Below are positions 8,369 through 27,157 of a DNA stretch of 32,000 nt, in pieces; positions within the stretch are counted from its first letter, which is position 1, and every line of letters starts with the position of its first letter. This stretch comes from Luteolibacter ambystomatis. Its GTDB lineage: Bacteria > Verrucomicrobiota > Verrucomicrobiia > Verrucomicrobiales > Akkermansiaceae. The notes under the pieces were generated by a model. The model saw only the letters and a list, made by a program, of their open reading frames with translations, searched no databases and was not told where the DNA came from. Location of the stretch: contig NZ_CP073100.1 of NCBI RefSeq assembly GCF_018137965.1, positions 2,397,754 to 2,429,753 on the forward strand, in the 5' to 3' direction. The position numbers and the translations under genes were made by a program.

Positions 8369-9103
8369 ATGACCCGCAACTGGATCCGCAAGTCCCACCG
8401 CTGGCTTGGTCTCCTCTTCAGCCTCACCGCCCTCATGTCCGCGGGCAGTGGCGTCCTGCACACCGTCATGACCCGCACCCAGGCTCCCCCTCCCTCCGCC
8501 CGCCCATCCGGCGGAGGGCTGGATGCCGCCGCCATCCGCATCCCCATCGCCGATGCCGTGGCGAAACTCCCCGCGGGCACCAAAGCCTCCGCCGTCAATG
8601 TCCGCACCATCAGCGGCGAGCCGTGGTATCAGGTCTTCACCGGTGGCCCCGGCGTCCCCGCCTACGTCAGCGCCGTCGATGGCCGCATCGATCCCACCCG
8701 GGACGAACTCTACGCCGCTGAAATCGCCACCGCCTTCCTCGGCGGCAAGCCCGTCCGCAAGACCGGCTATCTAACAGCCTTCAACAACGAATACATCAAC
8801 ATCTTCCGCATCCTCCCCGTCCACCGCTACGATGCGGACGATGGCAAGGGCACGCGCGTCTATGTCTCCACCACCACCGGCAGCGTCACCCGCCACACCG
8901 ATGACGGCCGCCAGTTCGAAGCCAGCGCCTTCACCAACTTCCACAAGCTCGGCTTCATCCCGAACAAGGACATCCGCGACTGGGTCCAGATCATCACCAC
9001 CGGCGGACTCTTCCTCCTCTCCCTCTTCGGCATCCTCCTCTTCTTCATCACCCGCCCCCGCAAGCGCGCGGCTTCTGAGCCCCGGAGGGGCGACGGATGG
9101 TAG
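8369..9103 (+). CDS. PepSY-associated transmembrane protein, partner of the TonB-dependent receptor
   Basis: ATG 8369 (MTRNWIRKSHRWLGLLFSLTAL, the typical PepSY_TM N-terminal helix), a periplasmic PepSY-like middle region, and a second TM helix (IITTGGLFLLSLFGILLFFI). The last 10 codons and the stop lie inside a REP element. Confidence 0.8.
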   Translation: MTRNWIRKSHRWLGLLFSLTALMSAGSGVLHTVMTRTQAPPPSARPSGGGLDAAAIRIPIADAVAKLPAGTKASAVNVRTISGEPWYQVFTGGPGVPAYVSAVDGRIDPTRDELYAAEIATAFLGGKPVRKTGYLTAFNNEYINIFRILPVHRYDADDGKGTRVYVSTTTGSVTRHTDDGRQFEASAFTNFHKLGFIPNKDIRDWVQIITTGGLFLLSLFGILLFFITRPRKRAASEPRRGDGW

Positions 9104-9345
9104 CCGGTGGCGCAAGCCACCGGACAGCACCCGGCCCATTCGTCGATGCGCCCGGTAAACATCCATGATCTTCCGGACTCCGGTTGCGCCGCCCCTCCGG
9201 GGCTCAATCCATCACACGCGCTCCACCGGTGGTTTGCACCACCGGCTACCTTTCGCCGTCCCTACGGGACTCAGAATCTCCATCTACTACACTCCCCGTA
9301 GCCGCGTTCGTAAGAACGTGGGCTGGGCAAACCCACCCACCCCCT
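9075..9345. repeat. REP family A pair (forward plus reverse copy, REPIN-like) with a conserved tail motif
   Basis: Forward copy CTGAGCCCCGGAGGGGCGACGGATGGTAGCCGGTGGCGCAAGCCACCGGAC at 9075-9125. Reverse-orientation copy (CCGGTGG-N6-CCACCGGCTACC...CGCCGTCCCTACGGGACTCAGAATC) at about 9224-9278. The tail CTACTACACTCCCCGTAGCCGCGTTCG..GAACGTGGGCTGGGCAAACCC recurs at about 10664-10735. Confidence 0.75.
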
Positions 9346-9424
9346 CCGGCATCGCCCCATCTTCCGCCTCACTGGGAGTGGCTGCTTTCGAGCAGCCATG
9401 AAAGGGGCATCGACATCCATTCGC

Positions 9425-10118
9425 TCAACCACGCCCCCGCACTCACCCACCTCTGAGCCCCGGAGGGGCGGCGGACGGTAGCCGGTGGCGCAAGCCACCG
9501 GACAACACCCGACCTCATTGACAAGTCCCGGAGGGACGACGCAACGCAGGCTCCCGACCTCCCTCCACTCCTCACGCCCCCGCACTCATCCACCTCTGAG
9601 CCCCGGAGGGGCGGCGGACGGTAGCCGGTGGCGCAAGCCACCGGACAACACCCGCCCTCATTGACAAGTCCCGGAGGGACGACGCAACGCAGGCTCCCGA
9701 CCTCCCTCCACTCTCTCACGCCCCCGCACTCACCCACCTCTGAGCCCCGGAGGGGCGACGAATGGTAGCCGGTGGCGCAAGCCACCGGACAACACCCGAC
9801 CTCATTGACAAGTCCCGGAGGGACGACGCAACGCAGGCTCCCGACCTCCCTCCACTCTCTCACGCCCCCGCACTCACCCACCTCTGAGCCCCGGAGGGGC
9901 GACGAATGGTAGCCGGTGGCGCAAGCCACCGGACAACACCCGACCTCATTGACAAGTCCCGGAGGGACGACGCAACGCAGGCTCCCGACCTCCCTCCACT
10001 CTCTCACGCCCCCGCACTCACCCACCTTTGAGCCCCGGAGGGGCGGCGGACGGTAGCCGGTGGCGCAACCGGACAACACCCGACCTCATTGACAAGTCCC
10101 GGAGGGACGACGCAACGT
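9425..10118. repeat. Tandem array of a 144-bp REP doublet (4 full units, a 5' partial unit and a 3' truncated unit)
   Basis: The unit start CTCTGAGCCCCGG recurs at 9451, 9594, 9738, 9882 and 10026, giving periods of 143/144/144/144. Each unit holds hairpin A (CCGGTGGCGCAAGCCACCGG) plus box B (GTCCCGGAGGGACGACGC). Only a few substitutions distinguish the units. The last unit has a deleted hairpin arm and ends 12 nt before the transposase ATG. Confidence 0.92.
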
Positions 10119-10129
10119 AGGCTCTCGTC

Positions 10130-10564
10130 ATGCCTTCCACCTATTCGTGCCTCCACGTTCATGTCATCTTCTCGACAAAAGATCGGGTACCGGTGATCGG
10201 CACGGCTTGGCGCGACCGCCTGCACTCCTTCCTGGGTTCCGTCATTCAAGAACGCGGGGCACAACCCGTCGCGATCGGAGGTGTGGCGGACCATGTCCAT
10301 CTCCTGATCGGCCTCAAACCCATACATGCACCTGCCGCGATCGTGCGTGAGTTGAAATCCGTATCCTCCAAATGGATCCGGGAAAACCGGTTGGCCCCGG
10401 CCTTCGGGTGGCAGGAAGGTTACGGTATTTTCAGCGTGGGACCATCCCAAGTGGATGCCGTGGTGAGATACATTGCGAACCAGGAAGAACATCACCGCAC
10501 GCATACCGCGGAGGAAGAGTTCCGGGCGTTCCTGAGAAAAGCCGGTTTGGTTTCTCCGTCATAA
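10130..10564 (+). CDS. IS200/IS605-family Y1 (HUH) transposase, REP-associated (RAYT-like)
   Basis: 144 aa. HUH motifs (LHVHVIFSTKDR and ADHVHLLIGL), WQEGYGIFSV, and a C-terminal Tyr region (VVRYIANQEEHHR). Flanked by a perfect 18-bp inverted repeat at 10096-10113 and 10576-10593. No tnpB is adjacent. Confidence 0.88.
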   Translation: MPSTYSCLHVHVIFSTKDRVPVIGTAWRDRLHSFLGSVIQERGAQPVAIGGVADHVHLLIGLKPIHAPAAIVRELKSVSSKWIRENRLAPAFGWQEGYGIFSVGPSQVDAVVRYIANQEEHHRTHTAEEEFRAFLRKAGLVSPS

Positions 10565-10575
10565 TCGCGGAAGTC

Positions 10576-10735
10576 GCGTCGTCCCTCCGGGACTCCATTC
10601 CATCGGCCTGTGCTCCGGTGGCTCCCGCCACCGGCTACCATCCGCCGCCCCTCCGGGGCTCTGAATCATCCTCCACCAACTACTACACTCTCCGTAGCTG
10701 CGTTCGCGGGAACGTGGGCGGGGCAAACCCGCCAT
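10576..10735. repeat. Right-flank REP module, inverted relative to the left array
   Basis: GCGTCGTCCCTCCGGGAC (reverse complement of box B) at 10576-10593. Hairpin CCGGTGGCTCCCGCCACCGG at 10615-10634, followed by CTACCATCCGCCGCCCCTCCGGGGCTCTGAATC (reverse complement of REP A). The tail motif matches 9274-9340. Confidence 0.8.
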
Positions 10736-15038: not shown

Positions 15039-15713
15039 TCCGCCGCATTTCGGAGGCGATTTCAACCGCCCGGTTCGTCCATCCTTGCCGCGGTGGGGTG
15101 CCCACGTTGAGAACGTCGAATCGAGCCGCGCCGTCCACCGCATCGGCTCCAAACGGAAGCGCGGAGAATGGCCCTTTGTGGGGCCGGAAACGCCGCTCCA
15201 CTACCCGCCCTTTGCGCGAAACGGCTTCCCAGATCGTGATGTCCTCCGGCGCGCCAGGTCGTAGCGGTGAACGATCGAGGCACGCAGCCGCATCCTCGGC
15301 GACATCGGCCCGGAGCATATAGGCCATGCCGTAGGCCCGGGCCTGCCGTCCGGCCACGTCAGCCCCACGGCGCGTGCGTGGCGGTGCCGGGTGAACACGC
15401 GGCGATCCATCACCACGGTATCGTCATCCAGCTTCAACACATGAGTGGCCCCGTACCGTAGCGCCGTCTCCGCCAGCGTGCGGCAGATCCCGGCGGCGCA
15501 GTCGGTACCATTGAGATTGCCACGGCGCGGGAAGGTGGTGGTGACGAGGTCGATGCCCTCATGCATCAACCAGCCGCGCACATGGCCGGGGAGCGGGCTG
15601 GCGGCGTCCTCGCACACCACCGGCACCAATCCCGCACGGAGCGCGCCACGTACGGTCCATGGCAGCACGAGCGCGCCTCCGGCGTAGGTGAAGATGCAGG
15701 CGGGCAGGATCAT
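14983..15713 (-). pseudogene. GT-A fold (family-2-like) glycosyltransferase, apparently frameshifted
   Basis: The ATG at 15713 overlaps the upstream stop (ATGA). The N-terminal frame contains ...VVCEDAASPLP...RRGNLNGTDCAAGICRTLAETALRYGATHVLKLDDDTVV (DxD). After about codon 123 (around 15340-15360) the protein-like sequence continues in another frame (AGRQARAYGMAYMLRADVAEDAAACLDRSPL...), while the first frame degenerates into Arg/Pro/Ser junk. The 3' end is uncertain. Confidence 0.45.
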
Positions 15714-16654
15714 CCCCAGAATATCGGTCCTTGGTGCAGAGGGAATACATTGCGGTCCGTGTCCACGTAGGCCAGTGGCACGTAGTTCGTGGCGCCGGCC
15801 GATGCTGGAATCGCGGTTCCCCACAGCGGGCCGCGATGGCTTGCCACCTCTCCTGAGCCTGCGCTTGTCTCGGTGATTTCCACGAAGACGTAGCCATCGA
15901 GCGGGAGCGTGGGCCGGATCTCCACCACCATTTCGTAGGCCGCGCCACCATTGTAGGTATCCGCGCCATAGGTGGTGGATTGGTAAAGCCCGGAAGCCTC
16001 GTGGGTGGCCGTGGCATCGGCAGCCCGCACGGCCACGCCATCAGTGCCATCCCCGATCACGGCCGAACCGTCCGCATGGACCGTGATGGACCATGCGGCG
16101 TCCATGTCCCCGGTGTAGTGGTCACGATCCGCAGGAGTGAAGGATTGCACGGGCGCGGTGCCTGCCATCACGTAGAGATCCGCTGGCCGGAAATCCGGAA
16201 TCACATTGGCCTCGGGTTGTGCATCAAGCGTGAACCCGACGCTGCCGTTGTAGGTATCCGCGCCGTAGGTGGTGGACGGCATGGAGAAGCTGCCCACGGG
16301 CACGGTGGTGGTGGAAATGGTGCCGGCCGGAGCGGAGGCGATCACATCCGTATCGTCCGCAAGGTCCACGGAACCATCCACATGGAAGGTCATCGTGGCT
16401 CCTGGGAAAAGCTGGCCAACGAGGTCCGCGGCCGTGAATGCCCGGAAACAACCCGCTGGCACGTTGGTGCCGGGGGCGTTCGTGATCTTCACATTGCGGC
16501 CGCTGCCACCAACGAAGGAAACGCGCTCGGTGGGGCTGGCCTGCGTGGAGAGGTCCGCCACCAGGTAGCGGCCTCCGGTGCGTTGCCCGATGATCCACCC
16601 TCCCGTCACGGTCAGGTCGCCATCGCGGGTCATGATGACTTCAAACTGGTTCAT
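15710..16654 (-). CDS. Phage tail-fibre/host-recognition-like structural protein with an internal ~98-aa duplication
   Basis: The ATG at 16654 overlaps the upstream stop (ATGA). It starts MNQFEVIMTRDGDLTVTGG. STTYGADTYNG occurs twice, each preceded by H(V/A)DGS...D(D/G)TD. The composition is Thr/Gly/Ala/Asp-rich, beta-type. The family is unknown. Confidence 0.55.
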   Translation of the reverse strand: MNQFEVIMTRDGDLTVTGGWIIGQRTGGRYLVADLSTQASPTERVSFVGGSGRNVKITNAPGTNVPAGCFRAFTAADLVGQLFPGATMTFHVDGSVDLADDTDVIASAPAGTISTTTVPVGSFSMPSTTYGADTYNGSVGFTLDAQPEANVIPDFRPADLYVMAGTAPVQSFTPADRDHYTGDMDAAWSITVHADGSAVIGDGTDGVAVRAADATATHEASGLYQSTTYGADTYNGGAAYEMVVEIRPTLPLDGYVFVEITETSAGSGEVASHRGPLWGTAIPASAGATNYVPLAYVDTDRNVFPLHQGPIFWG

Positions 16655-17948: not shown

Positions 17949-19655
17949 TCACTCCGGGGTGTCCTCGATGGTGAGATCCTCAAGATCCATTCCGCCGACG
18001 AGTTCCTTGGCACGCGGGATGTGTGCGAGGGCGGCCTTGCGTCTGGCGTCCTCTTCACGGGCGGTGCGTTCCTCGCGGGCGCGCTTGCTTTCACGATCGC
18101 CGTGGTGGGTGGTGGAGGCGGGCGGGCGGTAGGGATCGACCTCCTGGCGATCGCGGGAGGAGTGGGAGGACGAGCCGCCGCTTCCGCCTCCACCACCCTG
18201 GTCGACCCAGCGGCCGCCATCGCGATTGCCCTTCGGGGCGCGCTTTTGATCGGGGCGGTAGGCGGCGGCGATGGTGCTGGCGCGGGCGTGAACGTCCGCC
18301 TGCGGCTGGAGGAAGAGGGTGGCACCGGCGGCGGGCTTGGCGACGCCGAGGGCATCGTAAACATGATCGGCCTCCATGGGGAGGCGGATGCGGTTGATGA
18401 GGATGTCCATGCGCTCGGCCTCGGCCTTGAGGTCGGTGGGCTCGGCCCAGTCCGGGAAGAACTCGGGGAGATCGGCATCCGTGCTACCAGAGTTCCAGTA
18501 GTTCCAGGCGGGGATGAGCTGGCGGGTGATGATGCCGCCGACGAAGTCCGCGATGCCACGGACGACGCCGCCCTTCGTCTCCGCGTGGACCTCGCCAAGG
18601 GCGCGGCTGCCGCCGTCCTTTGAGACGCCGGAGGTGAGGGTCTGGCCGAGCATGTACTGCTGGCATTGTTCATCGGCGAGGCGGAGGAGCTCGGCCTGGG
18701 GGAGGCCCTGGGCGGAGACGGAGTTTTGCGGGAATTCCAAGGTGGTGCCTTGTCGGGCGATCCCCCACCCCGCGTTGCCGAGATTGGCCATCATCTCGGC
18801 GAGGCCTTCCTTCGCGCTGTCGTCGGAATAGGTGGCCCAGCGGAAAGGGACGCCGAAGAGCTGGGCGAACTTCATGAACCACTCGAGGCCGTAAACGGCG
18901 GCGAGCCACCAGCCGGTGAGGACGCGGAGGGGTGCGGAGACCAATGGGTGGCCGGGGTGGCCGCCGTGGATGGCGATGAGGAAGCGGTGCTCGGGGAAAT
19001 CGATGTGATCCGCGGTGACGCCGCCGGAGGGATTGAGCATGAGGCGGTCCTCCTCCCCTCCCCAGCCACGATATCCATAGTAGCGGGCGGGCACGGAGCG
19101 GTAGGCGGCGGGACGCCATTCGCCGCGGAGGTTTTCCCAGCGGGGCTCGGTGACGGAGATGCCGGTGAAGTAGCCGGCGACGAGGTCGTCCATGAGATCC
19201 TCCAGCGCGCCCTCCGCGTAGGCGGGCCGGGGCCGGGCGCCCCAGAGCATGGCATGGGCGCGGGCGCTGGTGGCGGCGGCGGCTTCATCCGGCTGGCGGC
19301 CATCAAGGCACCACGGGCGGCATTTCCACGGTGCGCCTCGTACTTCGCGCTGGAGCTCGGCGAGGGACTTCTGGAGCATGGGCCAGGAATCGAACATGGC
19401 CTGGTAGAGCCGCTGCCAGAGGGCGAGATCGCCGTGGAGGGTGCTCTGGAGGATGCCCTTCACGTCCTGGGGCATCATCTGCCGCTCGAAGATCTCGTAA
19501 AGGCGGTCCCGCGCGGCCTCGATGATGATGGGGCGGGCGACGGAGGAAACGGAGGTTTTGGAGGATGGAGACGCGGTGGCAGCGGCGGCGACATGGGAGT
19601 CGCGGCGGGCGGGAAGCGCGGAACCGACGGGATGGCAGCCAGACATGCCGCGCAT
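17949..19655 (-). CDS. Phage portal protein, Mu gp29 / DUF935-like
   Basis: 568 aa. The N-terminal segment ILQSTLHGDLALWQRLYQAMFDSWPMLQKSLAELQREVRGAPW matches the gp29-type pattern (Gd...q.eLf.dm...d.hl...l..Rk..v..l.w). MLGQTLT is in the core, and the tail is Gly/Ser- and Arg/Glu-rich. ATG at 19655, with a second ATG at 19646. Confidence 0.7.
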   Translation of the reverse strand: MRGMSGCHPVGSALPARRDSHVAAAATASPSSKTSVSSVARPIIIEAARDRLYEIFERQMMPQDVKGILQSTLHGDLALWQRLYQAMFDSWPMLQKSLAELQREVRGAPWKCRPWCLDGRQPDEAAAATSARAHAMLWGARPRPAYAEGALEDLMDDLVAGYFTGISVTEPRWENLRGEWRPAAYRSVPARYYGYRGWGGEEDRLMLNPSGGVTADHIDFPEHRFLIAIHGGHPGHPLVSAPLRVLTGWWLAAVYGLEWFMKFAQLFGVPFRWATYSDDSAKEGLAEMMANLGNAGWGIARQGTTLEFPQNSVSAQGLPQAELLRLADEQCQQYMLGQTLTSGVSKDGGSRALGEVHAETKGGVVRGIADFVGGIITRQLIPAWNYWNSGSTDADLPEFFPDWAEPTDLKAEAERMDILINRIRLPMEADHVYDALGVAKPAAGATLFLQPQADVHARASTIAAAYRPDQKRAPKGNRDGGRWVDQGGGGGSGGSSSHSSRDRQEVDPYRPPASTTHHGDRESKRAREERTAREEDARRKAALAHIPRAKELVGGMDLEDLTIEDTPE

Positions 19656-19689: not shown

Positions 19690-19707
19690 CGGGTGGACTA
19701 GGGGGAA
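19690..19707 (-). promoter_or_regulatory. 18-nt motif TTCCCCCTAGTCCACCCG (minus strand), 34 nt upstream of the portal ATG
   Basis: 17 of 18 positions are identical to 22386-22403, which lies 41 nt upstream of the lipoprotein ATG. I saw only these two copies in the window. Confidence 0.25.
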
Positions 19708-19760
19708 TCGACAACCAAGCAATAAAATAGAATTCCCTTTTGATGCGTCACCGTCGCTGT

Positions 19761-21218
19761 CTATCGAGTTGTTCCGAAATCGCGGGCTTCATTCCAAAAG
19801 AGGCGGAGTTTACTCGGGTCAAAGAGCTCTGAGTAGGCTTTCCGGGGCTCGATCTCGGCTGTCCTTTTGATGAATTCTGCGAAATCGGGCTGCATAGCAG
19901 CTTTCATGAACATCATGTCGAGTGCGAGACGATCGAAGCCGGACGCGTTGGCGTCATCAGTAAGGTCACTCGCAATGAAGGCGGCATCGATCACTGCCAC
20001 TTTAGGAATCGTAAGATTTCGCACCACGGTAGGTCGCGGATCGACAGAGGAGAGCTCCTGCGTGACGGATTCCTTCTTCTTGAAATCGAATTCTTGTTCG
20101 CTAGTGACGACAGGAGAGGAGGCTTGATCGGTTCTCGAAATGTCCTGATCAATTCGGGTTTTGGGAAGAAGCAGGTGGAAGGGGTCGGTGGCGAATTTTC
20201 CGAGATTCGAATCGAACTCAATTGCCACCCACATACCCGCTCCGATTTCGGCCTGGAGGACACTGAGTTCGATCTCCAGCGATAACGTGGTTTGAGCGGG
20301 AATCGAGAATACGGGAGTAAGATCTCTTTCCTGATTTCCCTCCGCCCATACGATATCGTGGTGATAGGTGTGAAGGGATTCGAGAGGGCCGGGAAGTGGC
20401 CCCATGACCTCAAAAAGCTCCTTAACCTGATAGGTTAGAGCGGTAATGAGAAGATCTTCTTGGGATGGATTTCGGATAGTAAACTGGAAGACGAGCCGAG
20501 AAGCTTTGCTAAAGGGATACTTGGGTTCAATCGCCATGTAGGAGTCATGATCCTTGAGCCACGACCGATTGCTGTCGCAGAAAATCGCGCTAGCGTCTGT
20601 GCGTTTTCGGTATCCGATGCTGGTGTTGGACAAAGCGAATTGGATGATCTCCGGTTTTGGAGTAGCTTTGGGCGAAGCACTGATCACGACGCTCCCGGAT
20701 TCATCTTTTCCCTGCATCGAATTTTGATGACCCTTATGGACGAAAAGGGCACCCACCATTCCCGCAAGGATCAGTGCGGCCGTGACTGCGGTGCCGATTA
20801 CTGCCATGCGGTTCTTTCTTCGCCGCTCCAATATCCGCAACGCGTGGCCGATCGTCTCCGCGGTCAGGTCGCCGGCCGCATCCAATACAGTGACAGCGCG
20901 AAGGTATGCGGGGATCGTCTGAAATGGAATTGGTTGCGTTTTTACGGTCAATAAACGATTTCCCGGTGTCGGGTATACCTCCTTGAACCACTCCAGTTCC
21001 GTCATTGCGTAGGCGCCTGAAGCTATCGATTCAGGCCGGGCAAGGAAGATGAGCAGCTGTGCATCGGAGACAAACTCGCGGATCTTGTTGTCATAGGATC
21101 CGCCCGGTCGAAGCTGCTGGCGATCAAAGAACACGTCATATCCCTGCTCCCGAAGCCGAATAGAAATGGACTCCGCCAAGTCGGCATCGATTGCCGCGTA
21201 AGAGATAAATACCTTCAC
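19761..21218 (-). CDS. TIR domain - single TM - ~300-aa unknown C-terminal domain protein
   Basis: GTG start. TIR signature KVFISYAAIDADLAESISIRLREQGYDVFFDRQQLRPGG...LLIFLARPESIASGAYAMTELEWF. Basic RRRKNR, then the TM helix MAVIGTAVTAALILAGMVGALFV. About 50% GC by eye, against about 65% in the flanks. Confidence 0.8.
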   Translation of the reverse strand: MKVFISYAAIDADLAESISIRLREQGYDVFFDRQQLRPGGSYDNKIREFVSDAQLLIFLARPESIASGAYAMTELEWFKEVYPTPGNRLLTVKTQPIPFQTIPAYLRAVTVLDAAGDLTAETIGHALRILERRRKNRMAVIGTAVTAALILAGMVGALFVHKGHQNSMQGKDESGSVVISASPKATPKPEIIQFALSNTSIGYRKRTDASAIFCDSNRSWLKDHDSYMAIEPKYPFSKASRLVFQFTIRNPSQEDLLITALTYQVKELFEVMGPLPGPLESLHTYHHDIVWAEGNQERDLTPVFSIPAQTTLSLEIELSVLQAEIGAGMWVAIEFDSNLGKFATDPFHLLLPKTRIDQDISRTDQASSPVVTSEQEFDFKKKESVTQELSSVDPRPTVVRNLTIPKVAVIDAAFIASDLTDDANASGFDRLALDMMFMKAAMQPDFAEFIKRTAEIEPRKAYSELFDPSKLRLFWNEARDFGTTR

Positions 21219-21528
21219 ACGATCATCAGGCTAACGACTCCGGCATCTCCCTGGCAATGGGAAATTGGCTAGAAGCCATCTCGAAAGAGGTTGTTACGGG
21301 TTCTGAAGGGAGAGCAGGCTTATGAGAATGGGGATTGGATGGGAGGCTTGATTGGAATTTGAGATTTCAAAGGGAGGGACGAGAGACTCCGCATCCCTTT
21401 GAAGACCTTCCTCGCCTGAATGCGGCAGGAGCGATAGCGACGGGCCAATCCCGGCGAAGCCGCTCACTGGCATGGCCCGGAGGGCAAGGCTCTACTCCTT
21501 CCGTGAAGGGAGATCCCTGCCCTTCCAT

Positions 21529-21613: not shown

Positions 21614-21700
21614 ACTTGCATGGGAGGAGACGATGGGAGCGGACGAATCTGTTAGACCCGGACATCTCGGCGAGACGTCCCTACCTCCGGAGGCGGGCGG

Positions 21701-22344
21701 TTATTTTGCGCCGAGCTTTTCGAGCTGGTGGCGGAGGGTTTCGAGGTCGGTGTCGTGGCGCTTGAGGAGGGCGGCGTGCTCGGCGGTGGTGCGGTCGAGA
21801 TCGCGGCGGCTTCCGCGGCGAGGGATTGGCGGGCGGACTCGGCGAACTGGTATTGGCTGGTGAGTGCCTGCGCCTGGCGGGTGAGCATGGCGACGGCGCT
21901 GTCTCCGGTGGAGGCGGCGGCGAGCGCGGCGGCGTGGGCGTTGCGCGCTTCATCGAGGGCGGTGGTTTGTCCGGCGATGAGGGAGGTTTGTTTCGCGACG
22001 GTGGCCTGGAAGGCGTCGACCTGGTCGCGGAGAGCGGCGTTTTCCGCAGCGACGCGGGTGAGCTGGGCGGCGGTGGCGGTGCCCTTGCCGGCGAGGCGGG
22101 CGGTTTCCGTGGCAAGGGTGCGGGCGCGATCGGTGGCGGTGGCGAGATCGCGGGCGAGGAGGTCATTGGCGGCGTGGAGACCGGCGGCGGAATCGGCGGC
22201 GCGCTGGAGGCCGGGCCGGATGGCATCGACGGCGGGAACGACGGGAGCGGCCTGCGGGAGTGGCAGCAGCGGGAGCGGCTTCACCTGCGGGGCACAGGAG
22301 AAAAGGCCGGCGCAGAGCGGGAGCAGGAGAATGGCGCGGTGCAT
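21701..22344 (-). CDS. Coiled-coil lipoprotein with an apparent frameshift near 21800-21812
   Basis: MHRAILLLPLCAGLFSC has a lipobox. A long Ala/Leu/Gln/Thr coiled coil runs to ...SLAAEAAA, after which the tracked frame becomes Pro/Ser/Thr junk. A different frame reads RDLDRTTAEHAALLKRHDTDLETLRHQLEKLGAK and stops at 21701. Confidence 0.6.
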
Positions 22345-22385: not shown

Positions 22386-22403
22386 CGGGCGGACTAGGGG
22401 GAA
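22386..22403 (-). promoter_or_regulatory. Second copy of the 18-nt motif (TTCCCCCTAGTCCGCCCG on the minus strand)
   Basis: See 19690-19707. It lies 41 nt upstream of the ATG at 22344. Confidence 0.25.
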
Positions 22404-22441: not shown

Positions 22442-22600
22442 CAATGTAGTCGAAAGCTCCGCTTTCGATATGGGGGGCGGCCGGGTGGTGGAGTGGGAGC
22501 CGGAGGATAAGTGACGTCCAGTCCGCGAAGAGGGAAAGCTGGAGCTTCCCCCTACATTGTAGTCGAAAGCGCCGCTTTCGATCCGAGGGGCGGCCGGATG
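22442..22600. repeat. Composite repeat D-E-D, copy 1
   Basis: D = CAATGTAGTCGAAAGCTCCGCTTTCGATATGGGGGGCGGCCGGGTGG (22442-22488; 8-bp stem TCGAAAGC/GCTTTCGA). E = AAGAGGGAAAGCTGGAGCTTCCCCCTACA (22528-22556). A second D lies at 22557-22597. Confidence 0.85.
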
Positions 22601-22704
22601 ATGAAGTGGAGCCACACGAGGAGGCCCACCGCGGACCAGAGGCAGGCGCGGGCGAGGCGGAGCCGGAAACGGAATCCAACCGGATCAGTTTCCACGGGGT
22701 TCAT
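22552..22704 (-). pseudogene. 5' fragment of a third membrane-protein paralog, truncated by the composite repeat
   Basis: ATG at 22704. MNPVETDPVGFRFRLRLARACLWSAVGLLVWLHFIIRPP parallels the N-terminus of the 22685-23185 protein, then runs straight into repeat D (LGSKAALSTTM, stop). Confidence 0.6.
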
Positions 22705-23185
22705 AGTAGATGGCAGGCGTGGGTTTCCAACCGGGGAGAATGAGGAGGCCGAGCGCGGTGGCGATGGAGGCCAGGAGCATGCGGAGGAATCCGTGATGGA
22801 CTTCACCCTCCATGTGTATCCGGAGGAGTGCGTGGAAAAACGAGCCGCACGCGGCCAGCGCGATGAGCCGGACGATCCAGCGCAGGAGGGCATGGCGGAC
22901 CATCACGCCCGCGAACCAGGGGACGACGAGCGTGATGACGGCGGAGGCTAGGAAGACCGGGTTGTCTCCAGGCTCGGAGCAATGGTCGGTGATCCTGAAC
23001 CCCGCGATTTCCCCGTACACCACCAGCATCCTCCTCCAGCAGATGTCCCACACGATCCACAGCGGCGGATGGCCGCCCCGGACAAACTGCGTGCCGACGA
23101 CCAGGAACAGGCCGAACCACAGCAGGGTGCGTGCGGTGAAAAGCCGGACGCGGAAAAGCAGCGGATCAGTGGCTACCGGGTTCAT
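22685..23185 (-). CDS. Small ~4-TM membrane protein, paralog A
   Basis: ATG at 23185 (MNPVATDPLLFRVRLFTARTLLWFGLFLVV...). Four hydrophobic segments, ending ...LILPGWKPTPAIYYEPRGN. The upstream 129 codons of the tracked ORF are out-of-frame overlap with paralog B. Confidence 0.7.
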   Translation of the reverse strand: MNPVATDPLLFRVRLFTARTLLWFGLFLVVGTQFVRGGHPPLWIVWDICWRRMLVVYGEIAGFRITDHCSEPGDNPVFLASAVITLVVPWFAGVMVRHALLRWIVRLIALAACGSFFHALLRIHMEGEVHHGFLRMLLASIATALGLLILPGWKPTPAIYYEPRGN

Positions 23186-23705
23186 CGTAGTTGGCGGCTG
23201 GTGTTTCCTTATCCGCGCCAGGCAGGATGCAGGGCGCGGCGGCTTTCCATCCGGACAGCAGGCAGAGGCCGGCGGCATTGGTGAGAGCAGCGAGTACGAA
23301 CAGCACACCGCCGGAGTAGATTCCCTCCACATCGTCATACCGACCGATGGACGGCCACGGAACGGCCAGGAAGACGACAAGCGCCGCGACCGCCAGCGCC
23401 CGGCAGATCCACCGCAGCGGGGCGTTTCCGGCGAGCACCCGCGCGAACCACGGGCAGACGGCGGAGAGAAAGAGGATCGTCCCGAGGGAGGCGAGGAACG
23501 CGGTGTAGAGGTTCGGCCCCAGGATGTATCCGCCCGGATGATGGCCGAGGCGGAAGCCGACCATGGTTTCACGAGGAATGTCGAAAAACATCCACCGCAC
23601 GGAATATCCGTGCGTCCAATCCAAAGGCAATGCCGCGAGGAGGAGGGCCGGTGCGAGCCAGAGGAGGATGCGGGCGAGGCGGCGGCGGCGCGGGGATTCC
23701 GGCAT
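23166..23705 (-). CDS. Small ~4-TM membrane protein, paralog B
   Basis: ATG at 23705 (MPESPRRRRLARILLWLAPALLL...), with an alternative ATG at 23750. It ends ...LLSGWKAAAPCILPGADKETPAANYDEPGSH. The architecture matches paralog A and the C-terminal GWK...Y(Y/D)EP motifs are conserved. Its 3' end overlaps the start of A by 20 nt. Confidence 0.7.
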   Translation of the reverse strand: MPESPRRRRLARILLWLAPALLLAALPLDWTHGYSVRWMFFDIPRETMVGFRLGHHPGGYILGPNLYTAFLASLGTILFLSAVCPWFARVLAGNAPLRWICRALAVAALVVFLAVPWPSIGRYDDVEGIYSGGVLFVLAALTNAAGLCLLSGWKAAAPCILPGADKETPAANYDEPGSH

Positions 23706-23780
23706 GATGTGGAGGATCACGGGTGGCCGGGGTATTGGCAAGGATGCCATGAGCTACATTCTTCCCCACACCGGGAGTCA

Positions 23781-26700
23781 TCATTTGGCAGCCAGCTTCA
23801 GGCGGAGCTTGGTCCATTCATCGTCCGAGCAACCGGCCTCGGTGGCGGCGGAGGCGAACTTGGTTTCCACTTCCTGTGAGGACATCTTCATGTCGGCAAG
23901 CGTGCTTCGGTAGCCTTCAAAGGCGTCGATGGATACCTGATCGACACGTCCATGCAAATGAATCGATTTCAGCGATATTACCAGGCACCGGTGAAAAAAT
24001 GCTCCAGCCTCCGCAGGACGGCCCGTGGCCCGCAAAAACTGTGCAAAGTTGGCAAGCCCACTGGTCAAATCCGCTTGATTCGGAAAGGACGCCTTCTCTT
24101 GCACCGCCACGGCACGCCGGTAAAAAATTTCTGCTTCTTCCAGACGATTAGTGGCCTGCAACACACAGGCGAGGTTATAATATGAAATCGCCACGTACGA
24201 GTGATTCAGCCCCAAGGATTTCTCATAGATTGCGGCTGCACGCCTCAAAAGAGGCTCGGCATCACCCCAGCGGCTCAACTTCATCAAAAGCCTGGCGAGA
24301 TTATTGGCAGATGTGGCAATTTTCGTGTAACCGGAGCCCGGGGATCCCTCATTGATCGCCAGCGCCCGCCGATACAGCGGTTCCGCTTCCGCGAGTCGGT
24401 CGGCACCGACCAGGAAGTGCGCAAGCCTATCGAGAGAAACCGTGATGGCAGGATCCCCCGTCCCCCAGACTTTCTCACGAATCGCCAGCGAGCGACGGAA
24501 AAGAGGTTCGGCTTCTTTCGACCGGCCCGTAACTTCAAAGAGCTGGCCGATATTGTCGAGCACGGCAGCTACTTTCGAATGATCCGGGCCAAGGGATTCT
24601 TCCAGAATCGCCAACTGGCGGCGATAAAGGCCCTCGGCCTCTTCCAAACTGCCCTTGTCGACCAAAACATTCCCCAGATTGCCCGAAGTGGTTGCGACAT
24701 CCGGGTGATCCGGGCCGCAAACACGCTCGCGAATATCCAGAGCACGGCGCAAAAGGGACTCCGCGTCCGCAAGGCGGTCCGTGGAGTGGCAAAGTTGGCC
24801 GAGATTGTCCAGGACCATCCCCACCGACGGGTGGTTGGAACCGTGAGCTTTCTCCAAAATCACCAAAGCCCGCCGGAAAAGGGGTTCCGCTTCCGTGAAG
24901 CGGTTCGCCTCGTTGAGAAGTCCGGCGAGAGAATTAAGAACCAAGCCGACATTAGGGTGATCCGGCCCCAGCGTTTTTTCGTTGATCGAAAGCGCGCGTT
25001 TCAACAGGGGCTCCGCCGCGGCGAAGCGGTTTGTGGTCATCAGGAGAACAGCCAGATTGCCGAGCGAGGTAGCAATGCAGGGATGATCGGCAGGCAGGCA
25101 CTTCTCATGAATCGCCAACGCACGGCGGAGAAGGCCTTCGGCTTCTCCATAGCGGTCTGTGGACTGGCAGAACAAAGCGAGATTGTTTAGTGAAGCAGCT
25201 AGGGCGGGATGATCGGATCCGAGAGATTTTTCAGAGATTGCAACCGCGTTGCGAAACAGCGACTCCGCTTCGGAGCGTCGGTTGGTCTCCTGGAGCAGAC
25301 GAGCCAGATTGTTGGTGGACGTGACATACTGCCATGAATCCAGATCGTGGAATCTCTCATGAATTTGGAGGGAGCCTCGGAGAGCCGCCTCCGCCTCGAC
25401 CAGGCGGTTTTCATCCCGCAGAAAATGCGAGTAATTGTTGAGGCAGTTTACAAGATCCGACATCTCCACTCCTGGTGACTTCGACCAGATCTCCAACCCC
25501 TGGCGAAAAATAGGCTCCGCCTCCTTGGGCCGGTTCGTCGCAATCAGTATCCCTGCCAGATTGCAAAGACTTCTTGCCACGGCATCCGACCGGCCACCCT
25601 CCCGCCTTTCCGCCGATGCCAGCAATGACCGGAACAACAACTCGGCCTCCTCATTCCGGGCCAATGTAAACAACGCGCAAGCCAGACGGTTGTTCACCTC
25701 GGTCCACATCTCCGCATCCACATCCTCCGAAACCCATGCCGCCGCACGGCGACAGGACGCCAAAGAGGCTTCAAAATCCGGCTTCAACATGAGGGCATCA
25801 CTCTGCTTCAGAAGAGAATCCACCATACACTGGCGCTCTCTCTTCCGTTCGTCCGCCACCCGCTCATGCCATGCTTCCGCCGCAGCATACTGGGCGTCCA
25901 GATGTTTCATGCGGACTTCACCGGAGTCCGTATCCTCCTCCATCAGCGCCGCTGCCTCGCCGAACCTCCCCTTCGCCATGAGAACATAATACTTTTGTTT
26001 CGCCTCCGCTCCGGGGTTCTCCTCCACCTGCCGAACGTAAAGATCCAGTTTTCTCCGCAATTCTCCAACGGATACTTTCATCTCCACCGCTACCTGCTGC
26101 CATGCTAGATCCATTCGTTGTCCTGGCGTCAGCTCCTCTTTCTCCCTCCTATCAGCAGCGGCCAATTTGATAGCCCGGTCAACAGCAGCTTCCATGACAG
26201 CAGCGTTCTCCTTCGCTTCCACGCGGTTCAATTCTTTCGCCTCCAGGTGATTCCGCTGCTGCTGATGCAAGAATGTCGCACCTCCAGCCACCACTAGCGC
26301 CACCAATAAACATACCGCGATCAAACCATGACGCCGCGTGCGGACCACCTCGCGGCGCACCTGGTGCTCCTCGATCCGGAGGGAGATGAGGACTTCGCGC
26401 AGGGCCATGACGCGGGTGCGCAGTTGATGGAGGTCCGCCGGGCGCTCGTGGAAGCCGGGCGCCTCCTGCAGCCGCCGGCGGTGGGCGATCTGCCACTCCC
26501 GCTTTTCCCCGTCCTCGAGCGGAAGGTCCTCATCGTAGGGAAAGTCTTCCGGACAGATGAAGGTATAGACGCGGAAGGACCCGATCCCGCGTTCATCCTG
26601 GAGGCGGCGGCCGATGTCATGCTCGATCTGGGTGTAGCTGCGCCGCGGCATGCCGGCAGGCAGCGTGGCGGGGTCCGGCTCGCCGCTGTAGCGCATGCCG

Positions 26701-26897
26701 GCGATGTGGATGAGCGCCTGGCATTCGGAGATACGTCGTTCCAACATTCCCGTCACGGTGCCCGCATCCGGAGGAAAATTCGTCGTTTCCTCCACCGGAT
26801 GGCAGCCGATGGCGAGCAGCGCGTCCCTCACCACAAGCCTCGCTCCGCGGAGATCTCCATTGGTGGCGGAAATGAATATCTTCGGGATGGGGGGCAT
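23781..26897 (-). CDS. DUF4062 (TIR-like) - TM - coiled coil - TPR-array protein (1038 aa)
   Basis: N-terminus KIFISATNGDLRGARLVVRDALLAIGCHPVE...ECQALIHIAGMRYSG is the DUF4062 pattern. Basic RREVVRTRRHG, then the TM helix LIAVCLLVALVVAGGATFL. About 13 tandem 42-aa TPR_12/KLC-like repeats (consensus AE.L.RRALAI.EK.LG.DHP.VA..LNNLA.LL..TNR). I saw no Walker A motif. Confidence 0.8.
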   Translation of the reverse strand: MPPIPKIFISATNGDLRGARLVVRDALLAIGCHPVEETTNFPPDAGTVTGMLERRISECQALIHIAGMRYSGEPDPATLPAGMPRRSYTQIEHDIGRRLQDERGIGSFRVYTFICPEDFPYDEDLPLEDGEKREWQIAHRRRLQEAPGFHERPADLHQLRTRVMALREVLISLRIEEHQVRREVVRTRRHGLIAVCLLVALVVAGGATFLHQQQRNHLEAKELNRVEAKENAAVMEAAVDRAIKLAAADRREKEELTPGQRMDLAWQQVAVEMKVSVGELRRKLDLYVRQVEENPGAEAKQKYYVLMAKGRFGEAAALMEEDTDSGEVRMKHLDAQYAAAEAWHERVADERKRERQCMVDSLLKQSDALMLKPDFEASLASCRRAAAWVSEDVDAEMWTEVNNRLACALFTLARNEEAELLFRSLLASAERREGGRSDAVARSLCNLAGILIATNRPKEAEPIFRQGLEIWSKSPGVEMSDLVNCLNNYSHFLRDENRLVEAEAALRGSLQIHERFHDLDSWQYVTSTNNLARLLQETNRRSEAESLFRNAVAISEKSLGSDHPALAASLNNLALFCQSTDRYGEAEGLLRRALAIHEKCLPADHPCIATSLGNLAVLLMTTNRFAAAEPLLKRALSINEKTLGPDHPNVGLVLNSLAGLLNEANRFTEAEPLFRRALVILEKAHGSNHPSVGMVLDNLGQLCHSTDRLADAESLLRRALDIRERVCGPDHPDVATTSGNLGNVLVDKGSLEEAEGLYRRQLAILEESLGPDHSKVAAVLDNIGQLFEVTGRSKEAEPLFRRSLAIREKVWGTGDPAITVSLDRLAHFLVGADRLAEAEPLYRRALAINEGSPGSGYTKIATSANNLARLLMKLSRWGDAEPLLRRAAAIYEKSLGLNHSYVAISYYNLACVLQATNRLEEAEIFYRRAVAVQEKASFPNQADLTSGLANFAQFLRATGRPAEAGAFFHRCLVISLKSIHLHGRVDQVSIDAFEGYRSTLADMKMSSQEVETKFASAATEAGCSDDEWTKLRLKLAAK

Positions 26898-26978: not shown

Positions 26979-27157
26979 CCAATGTAGTCGAAAGCTCCGC
27001 TTTCGATATGGGGGGCGGGTGGATGATGGATGGAGGTCGGAAGGCGGGTGATGTCCGATACCAAAGAGGGAAAGCTGGAGCTTCCCCCTACATCGGGAAA
27101 GCGGAGCGGCAATGTAGTCGAAAGCTCCGCTTTCGATCCCGGGGGCGGCCGGGTGGC
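26979..27157. repeat. Composite repeat D-E-D, copy 2 (same orientation as copy 1)
   Basis: D at 26979-27022, E (AAGAGGGAAAGCTGGAGCTTCCCCCTACA) at 27063-27092, D at 27110-27155. Long stretches are identical to 22442-22600. Confidence 0.85.

Follow-up and report, generated by a model that had tools for sequence, protein, structure and literature searches.

Here we describe a gene in a 32,000-nucleotide stretch of the Luteolibacter ambystomatis contig NZ_CP073100.1 (positions 2,397,754 to 2,429,753, hereafter the window) that encodes, in one chain, a TIR domain, a single transmembrane (TM) helix and an outer module belonging to a previously unannotated family. An initial annotation, made from the letters alone, had read this gene as an "inverted Toll-like receptor", acquired horizontally and lying next to a phage remnant, and we followed up that reading by profile searches, structure prediction and comparison of genomic contexts.

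A TIR gene of foreign composition

Open reading frame (ORF) calling gives an intact frame of 485 codons on the minus strand. Its GTG start is judged to be well placed because the N-terminus, MKVFISY, begins as do the closest relatives, P0001 and P0093; an identical protein is annotated in GCA_042677115.1 (contig JBHTIN010000006.1). The gene and its product comprise the following features, in which the structural models are from AlphaFold2 (AF2) and their confidence is the predicted local distance difference test (pLDDT).

19761..21218, minus strand: complete coding sequence of the 485-residue TIR-TM-sandwich-helical protein; GTG start at 21218, stop codon at 19761-19763
~19710-21420, no strand: island of low GC content (~50-55% within a background of ~65-70%) of ~1.7 kb, holding the gene and ~200 bp upstream
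20874..21212, minus strand: TIR domain, residues 3-115, Pfam TIR_2 (PF13676); conservation reaches approximately residue 130
20997-20999, minus strand: GAA codon of E74, candidate catalytic glutamate (Y70-A-M-T-E74-L), from the sequence and the clade alignment
20808..20825, minus strand: juxtamembrane basic patch RRRKNR, residues 132-137, from the sequence
20739..20807, minus strand: single TM helix, residues 138-160; Kyte-Doolittle maximum 2.17, one long helix in both AF2 models
20169..20651, minus strand: immunoglobulin (Ig)-like beta-sandwich, residues ~190-350, AF2 pLDDT ~80-96; 89 homologues, core of the unannotated family
20037..20156, minus strand: disordered linker, residues ~355-394 (~40 residues), pLDDT ~40 in both models, of variable length in alignment A1
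19770..20000, minus strand: C-terminal helical bundle, residues ~407-483, pLDDT 91-97, with the conserved motif [FL]D.L.RD..F..A

The gene is compositionally foreign and was horizontally acquired, as had been proposed from its being richer in AT than its surroundings. Its GC content is 0.527 and its GC content at third codon positions (GC3) is 0.59, compared with a GC3 of 0.85-0.90 for the portal, SecA and Ldh_2 genes of the window, and the tetranucleotide correlation between the gene and the host is 0.60, compared with 0.95 between one half of the host sequence and the other. Because its composition is unlike that of either neighbour, the gene looks like a later insertion of a single gene rather than phage cargo that co-evolved with its surroundings.

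The TIR domain and its membrane helix

By sequence, the protein belongs to the TIR_2 superfamily. Residues 3-115 match the Pfam profile with E=1.5e-14 and 55 bits, above the curated gathering score of 28, and a four-sequence profile made from this TIR domain and three relatives matched solved NADase TIR domains in the PDB: 7uxr (4.6e-12), AbTir (7uwg and 8g83, ~1e-9) and SARM1 (1.5e-8), with BtpA/TcpB also among the matches. With these NADase TIR domains it shares box 1 (F-I-S-Y/H), the BB-loop region (VF.D...L.PG.S) and the [WY]xxxE[LV] glutamate motif. The initial annotation had pointed to a glutamate in the segment AMTELEW as a candidate catalytic residue; this segment holds both E74 and E76, and it is E74 that occupies the [WY]xxxE[LVM] position. 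E74 is invariant in 6/6 aligned sequences, which comprise the five members of the clade described below and the stand-alone TIR of the metagenomic locus L032 (the Glu of YVRFEL). We take E74 to be equivalent to AbTir E208 and SARM1 E642, by motif and not by structure, and infer that the TIR domain has NADase activity. In the full-length AF2 model, whose input contained one close TIR homologue, residues 1-120 have a pLDDT of ~45.

The basic patch directly precedes the only hydrophobic helix, in the order first described, and five Lys or Arg residues lie within the 15 residues before the helix and two after it. Counterpart patches (KRKKK, KRRRR, WRR and WWRR) occur in P0001 and in P0093, P0094 and P0095. 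P0001 is 62% identical to the window protein over residues 1-130 only and continues with its own basic patch and TM helix into an unrelated C-terminus; its gene adjoins a CBASS operon of SMODS, E2 and prok_STING. P0093-95, at 38-45% identity, repeat the order of TIR, basic patch and TM helix and end in differing C-termini, either a small beta-rich domain or TPR-like helices. The window protein, P0001 and P0093-95 thus form a TIR-TM clade in which the effector is constant and the outer part is swapped.

A neighbouring gene of the window (23781-26897, minus strand) follows the same logic of layout. Its 1038-residue product begins with a DUF4062 domain (residues 6-92, 34 bits compared with a cut-off of 24.7), which we take to be TIR-like from its Pfam clan, and continues with an Arg-rich patch, one TM helix (residues 192-210, Kyte-Doolittle 2.7), a coiled coil and ~14 TPR_10/TPR_12 repeats that are predicted to lie outside. 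Its GC3 is 0.67, below the host value.

An unannotated family of membrane-anchored sandwiches

The C-terminal ~325 residues match nothing in Pfam, NCBIfam, PADLOC or PHROGs, in agreement with the original statement that this part has no recognised motif; a housekeeping family is likewise not matched. That statement had also treated the part as one domain of ~300 residues, and here the AF2 model, built on 33 family sequences with a mean pLDDT of 77.8, differs: after the TM helix come a beta-sandwich and, beyond a disordered linker, a helical bundle with pLDDT 94-97, an arrangement that the second, full-length model also gives. The predicted fold class, an Ig-like sandwich, is clear. Foldseek searches of PDB and BFVD returned generic Ig-like sandwiches only (E ~1e-4 to 1e-3, TM-score <=0.46), including ApaG, TRAP-beta, arrestin, the Wzt CBD and uncharacterised phage proteins.

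An exhaustive HMMER search with residues 165-485 against 1.84 billion cluster representatives (E<=1e-3) identified 89 family representatives, 40 of them at E<=1e-10, the best having E=5e-31 at 36% identity. Only this exhaustive search revealed the family, since word-indexed searches with the full protein, alignment A1 and the TIR-TM module returned 1, 3 and 3 proteins, respectively. Family members are 29-39% identical to the window protein over residues ~185-480. The hallmark of the family is an N-terminal TM anchor followed by a sandwich with N250, Y285, H287, G294, Q296 and P302, to which full-length members add a helical tail with the [FL]D.L.RD motif; the window protein has all of these, and its ORF reaches 308 bits with the A1 profile and 202 bits with the TIR profile. 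We conclude that the TM helix and beta-sandwich, with or without the helical bundle, constitute a previously unannotated family that is absent from Pfam.

Nearly all homologues place one to three hydrophobic helices before the sandwich, and the family as a whole informs on topology. Among the homologues with a single TM helix (n=49), an excess of Lys and Arg lies on the N-terminal flank in 34 and on the C-terminal flank in 4. In the largest subfamily, two Cys residues of the helical bundle co-occur, such that complete members without one lack both, the pattern expected of a disulfide in an oxidising compartment; the window protein itself lacks this pair, which belongs to a sister subfamily. 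Because of this charge bias and the co-varying Cys pair, an N-in/C-out topology is supported at the level of the family, which agrees with the earlier placement of the TIR domain in the cytoplasm and of the C-terminal part outside.

To locate further members we scanned genome, metagenome and viral contigs with a hand-made degenerate DNA pattern for the family. True matches made up 2/9 of those in genome contigs and 14/20 of those in metagenome contigs, and the same scan found no family member in 2.9 million viral contigs.

Genomic contexts of the family

The closest parallel to the window protein is found at the metagenomic locus L032, where the stop codon of a 196-residue TIR_2 gene (E=4.7e-12) overlaps the start of the gene for family member P0006.

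L032, 5502-6089, minus strand: stand-alone TIR gene, TIR_2, with the glutamate in YVRFEL
L032, 4390-5502, minus strand: P0006 gene, 39% identical to the outer module of the window protein

Because the same two parts are separate, overlapping genes at this locus, we regard the pair as a split, translationally coupled version of the window fusion. The C-terminal tail of the L032 TIR protein, HGDQSPNVVAGKDVSISFG, also resembles the N-terminus of P0006, QGDQSPNVAAAGDVTIHYG, and this shared segment, GDQSPNV..G.DV.I, may be a docking or adaptor motif.

Other members provide further partners. In P0081 the outer module is fused to a DUF676 serine esterase, an instance of effector swapping. The defence island that encodes P0026 also contains a TIR gene, an HD protein, an integrase and DUF2326/MC6 (of the ABC-three-component type), and the L012 member, a long variant with three TM helices from an Agriterribacter metagenome-assembled genome, adjoins Mrr_cat genes. 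As judged from these sequences, the sandwich family holds the outer part constant while its effector varies between a TIR domain in cis, a TIR domain in trans and an esterase, the mirror image of the TIR-TM clade. Such reciprocal modularity is typical of conflict systems.

Two further contexts were observed. The long variant (L012 4088-6432, L018 4698-7121, L033 6813-9205) has, besides its three TM helices, an insertion of ~100 residues in the sandwich, and at all three loci it is followed by a gene for a secreted WD40/beta-propeller-like protein of ~390-410 residues; the two look like a conserved two-gene unit. The short members P0091 and P0031 are encoded directly after an RHS/YD-shell toxin and small immunity-type genes (L005 7655-10834, L006 8648-10858). 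The immunity-type gene of L006 is Imm8, and at L005 a Y1 transposase lies in between.

Comparison with known systems

No described system accommodates the window protein. In sequence, its TIR profile matches best the bacterial TIR NADases (AbTir, BtpA/TcpB, PdTIR, 7uxr) and SARM1; however, those proteins are soluble or coupled to coiled-coil or ARM/SAM regulators, whereas in the window protein a TM helix follows the TIR domain by 20 residues, anchoring the protein, and an additional domain lies outside. A TIR effector is also what it has in common with Thoeris ThsB and with the TIR effectors of CBASS, Pycsar and type III CRISPR (TIR-SAVED, TIR-STING, PycTIR, Cat1). TIR effectors of prokaryotic immunity are activated by oligomerisation. 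The PADLOC matches to SAVED_TIR and ThsB are weak, involve the TIR parts of those models and cover the first ~65-78 residues only. Assignment to Thoeris was rejected: the window holds no neighbour of the ThsA type (SIR2, Macro, SLOG), and ThsB scores 16-18 bits over ~65 residues. Nor is the protein a CBASS, Pycsar or CRISPR TIR effector, as neither it nor the window contains a SAVED, STING, cNMP-binding, CARF or cyclase domain.

To our knowledge, the characterised bacterial TIR immune proteins sense cytoplasmic events, and triggering across a membrane from outside is, among characterised TIR proteins, the logic of the animal Toll and IL-1 receptors. The idea of sensing infection at the envelope and signalling to a cytoplasmic effector is shared with envelope-associated anti-phage sensors such as ZorAB of Zorya, which is a multi-subunit, proton-driven motor. 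The window protein has neither sequence nor architectural kinship with ZorAB and is a single polypeptide.

Control of a TIR NADase by a membrane tether has a precedent in Dictyostelium TirC, an amoeba enzyme acquired from bacteria that is tolerated with its N-terminal TM helix and lethal without it (PMC13142454). The likeness lies in a TIR NADase held to the membrane by one helix, the tether controlling toxicity; TirC differs in being eukaryotic, in its helix being N-terminal and in having no ectodomain. The likeness to IL-1R and TLR is one of topology, and to this extent the comparison with a Toll-like receptor stands: single-pass, with the TIR domain in the cytoplasm and a beta-sandwich outside, which is Ig-like in IL-1R (PMC7075850). 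It remains an analogy, since the order of the chain is reversed (N-terminal TIR, type II, no signal peptide), the TIR domain is of the bacterial TIR_2 type with a catalytic-type glutamate, the ectodomain has no homology to Ig or leucine-rich repeat domains, its resemblance to them being the generic one of a beta-sandwich, and no adaptor is known. Membership of the Toll/IL-1 receptor family was rejected on these grounds. The layout had been called under-described, and in agreement with this we found no characterised bacterial membrane-spanning TIR protein with an ectodomain in the literature searched, whose coverage is incomplete, so that absence is unproven.

Possible functions of the protein

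Both the TIR-TM-sandwich architecture and the new domain family are real, and the analysis establishes the domain identities, the membrane anchoring, the conserved catalytic-type glutamate, the modular swapping and the genetic link between TIR and the outer module. This exact fusion, however, was seen once only, and its function is read from sequence. We consider the protein most likely to be an effector of conflict or defence that was acquired horizontally and acts on its own, because the TIR_2 score and the profile matches to solved NADase TIR domains, the invariance of E74, the recurrence of the TIR-TM module, the CBASS operon beside P0001, the membrane anchors, charge bias and Cys pair of the outer-module family, the L032 pair, P0081, the island contexts and the low-GC island all point in this direction. 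We hold the full chain of this reading tentatively, at slightly below even probability: one gene would encode a TIR NADase that spans the membrane and serves a conflict or defence system, its effector constant and its outer module exchangeable.

According to this model, the product would be a single-pass type II inner-membrane protein with its TIR domain in the cytoplasm and its Ig-like sandwich and helical bundle outside; for a diderm host of the Planctomycetes-Verrucomicrobia-Chlamydiae (PVC) group, outside would mean the periplasm. The outer module may have a sensing role, binding or responding to an envelope cue such as a phage component crossing the periplasm, a competitor toxin or envelope damage, and the protein would then cluster in the plane of the membrane. 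TIR-TIR clustering assembles the active sites of SARM1, AbTir, TIR-SAVED and TIR-STING. Clustered TIR domains of the window protein would form a composite active site, as TIR NADases require, and cleave NAD+, and the cell under infection or attack would then stop growing or die, by which the gene may provide phage defence.

Several observations weigh against this model. No TIR domain occurs in any of the 89 family representatives, an operonic TIR is present at only 1/~16 usable loci and a nearby TIR at one more, and members that follow RHS toxin/immunity cassettes or pair with the secreted WD40-like protein indicate that the role of the family may not be phage sensing. The Foldseek searches of PDB and BFVD yield no functional analogue of the outer module. 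The TIR domain is modelled at low confidence (pLDDT ~45), its glutamate is placed by motif, and the enzymatic activity and phenotype are predictions from the protein's sequence. In addition, the window is not an obvious defence island, and the defence-system scan suggested at the outset gave a negative answer, with PADLOC assigning no system to the locus and detecting generic TIR similarity only; NCBIfam and PHROGs likewise yielded no assignment to a system.

One alternative explanation is that the membrane helix and outer module sense no ligand and instead restrain an auto-active TIR NADase in two dimensions, with activation by proteolytic release or by general perturbation of the membrane or envelope. 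The dependence of TirC on its TM helix (PMC13142454) lends support to this idea, and in the models the ~40-residue disordered linker and the long juxtamembrane helix could be points of cleavage or strain. A tether, however, would render superfluous a conserved two-domain ectodomain of ~300 residues with invariant polar N250, Y285 and Q296 and a near-invariant H287, and it leaves unexplained why whole ectodomains are swapped among close TIR-TM relatives. We regard it as unlikely.

It is also conceivable, if somewhat less probable, that the system serves inter-bacterial conflict or envelope signalling rather than defence against phage: the outer module would recognise a competitor toxin or kin signal, or the family members would belong to polymorphic toxin loci as their immunity or accessory components. 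The positions of P0091 and P0031 after toxin and immunity-type genes would fit this, although both come from a short subfamily without the helical bundle, other contexts resemble defence islands, and a TIR effector inside the producing cell suits suicide or arrest more than immunity. Another possibility concerns the product of the enzyme. Thoeris-type TIR domains are known to produce signalling nucleotides, and the window TIR might similarly make a nucleotide messenger (a cyclic ADP-ribose isomer or similar) for a remote effector, as ThsB does. Its N-terminal ~65 residues are weakly similar to the ThsB and ThcB4 models, yet the NCBIfam ThcB4 score is 26 bits compared with a cut-off of 220, no ThsA-like partner (SIR2, Macro, SLOG) is present in the window, and the compositional island holds one gene, and we consider this explanation very unlikely. 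Equally improbable is a functionless or decaying passenger recently acquired by a degraded prophage region, which the singleton architecture, the unameliorated GC3 and the isolated portal gene alongside would suit, but which is at odds with an intact 485-codon ORF that keeps every conserved position of both modules, as its profile scores reflect.

A broader proposition, which we advance as doubtful, is that bacteria have true single-pass TIR receptors, in which an extracytoplasmic Ig-like module detects a component of a phage or competitor and signals across the membrane by clustering a catalytic TIR domain. Such receptors would be a prokaryotic counterpart, and possibly a conceptual forerunner, of IL-1R/TLR transmembrane signalling; the small clade of the window protein, P0001 and P0093-95 would swap ectodomains as specificity modules, and a TIR NADase linked across the membrane to an outside domain would indicate that events at the envelope, too, can set off TIR-based immunity. 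Going by the literature found, this receptor-like layout of TIR, TM helix and ectodomain is unstudied in bacteria. The unannotated sandwich family, coupled to TIR by fusion and in an operon and to the DUF676 esterase by fusion, provides a handle on envelope-level sensing.

Surroundings of the gene

The gene had been described as lying next to a phage remnant and exactly where the terminase of the adjacent portal gene would be expected. The portal gene is indeed directly downstream.

17949..19655, minus strand: Mu-type portal gene, the only recognisable phage gene (Portal_Mu E=6.4e-64; phrog_113)

No phage gene except the portal was detected in the window with Pfam, PHROGs and a comparison with Akkermansia phage Chantilly, and no tRNA was found. 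Chantilly carries the closest phage relative of the portal, at 30% identity, and shares no further gene; this match and the Acido-Lenti-1 RNAs described below point to a host of the PVC group. The label of phage remnant is plausible for the region, its one recognisable component being the portal gene. In phage Mu the terminase lies next to the portal, which fits the argument for a terminase slot; in Chantilly, TerL is found not beside the portal but 3.8 kb upstream of it, and the positional claim is accordingly weak. Replacement of a terminase in an otherwise intact prophage was rejected, as the portal alone is phage-like. For the same reason the gene does not qualify as cargo (a moron) of a Mu-like prophage, a comparison limited by a contig edge: JBHTIN010000006.1 starts at window position 15440, 4.3 kb from the TIR gene. 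An ORF (15201..15824, minus strand) crosses 15439/15440, and the sequence to the left has the same tetranucleotide signature (r=0.95); it may belong to another contig of this genome, the window then joining two contigs, or the window may represent a different version of the assembly.

Between the TIR gene and two small membrane proteins lies a gene (21652-22344, minus strand) for a 230-residue protein with an Ala-rich coiled coil, a lipoprotein-type signal (…LFSC) and a Pro/Ser/Thr-rich tail, without a match in Pfam, NCBIfam or PHROGs. An 18-nucleotide motif, TTCCCCCTAGTCCRCCCG, occurs twice on the minus strand (19690-19707 and 22386-22403; 0.06 expected), in each case ~35-42 nucleotides upstream of an ATG, that of the portal gene and that of this lipoprotein-like gene. 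The two copies flank a 2.7-kb block in which the TIR gene and its lipoprotein-like neighbour lie; the motif may have a regulatory function common to both sites or may be the scar of an insertion.

The small multi-TM genes overlap each other (22685-23185 and 23166-23720, minus strand) and encode 166 and 184 residues without a family match; from a common N-terminal motif and the shared DNA repeat D3 they look like paralogues. A hairpin-containing repeat with the core GTAGTCGAAAGCKCCGCTTTCGAT is present in four copies on the plus strand (22446-22469, 22559-22582, 26984-27007 and 27114-27137; 0 expected by chance), and an exact 30-nucleotide repeat is shared by 22528-22557 and 27064-27093. In two pairs, these repeats flank the DUF4062-TM-TPR gene together with the two small multi-TM genes, and they could be elements of the repetitive extragenic palindrome or miniature inverted-repeat transposable element (REP/MITE) kind or cassette boundaries.

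Farther to the left, the Acido-Lenti-1 RNA (Rfam RF01687) has seven matches in 9078-10660, at 40-44 bits compared with a gathering score of 37. Four of these form a regular array on the minus strand with a spacing of ~143-144 nucleotides (9456, 9599, 9743 and 9887), and they overlap ORF 9369..10079, which is probably spurious.

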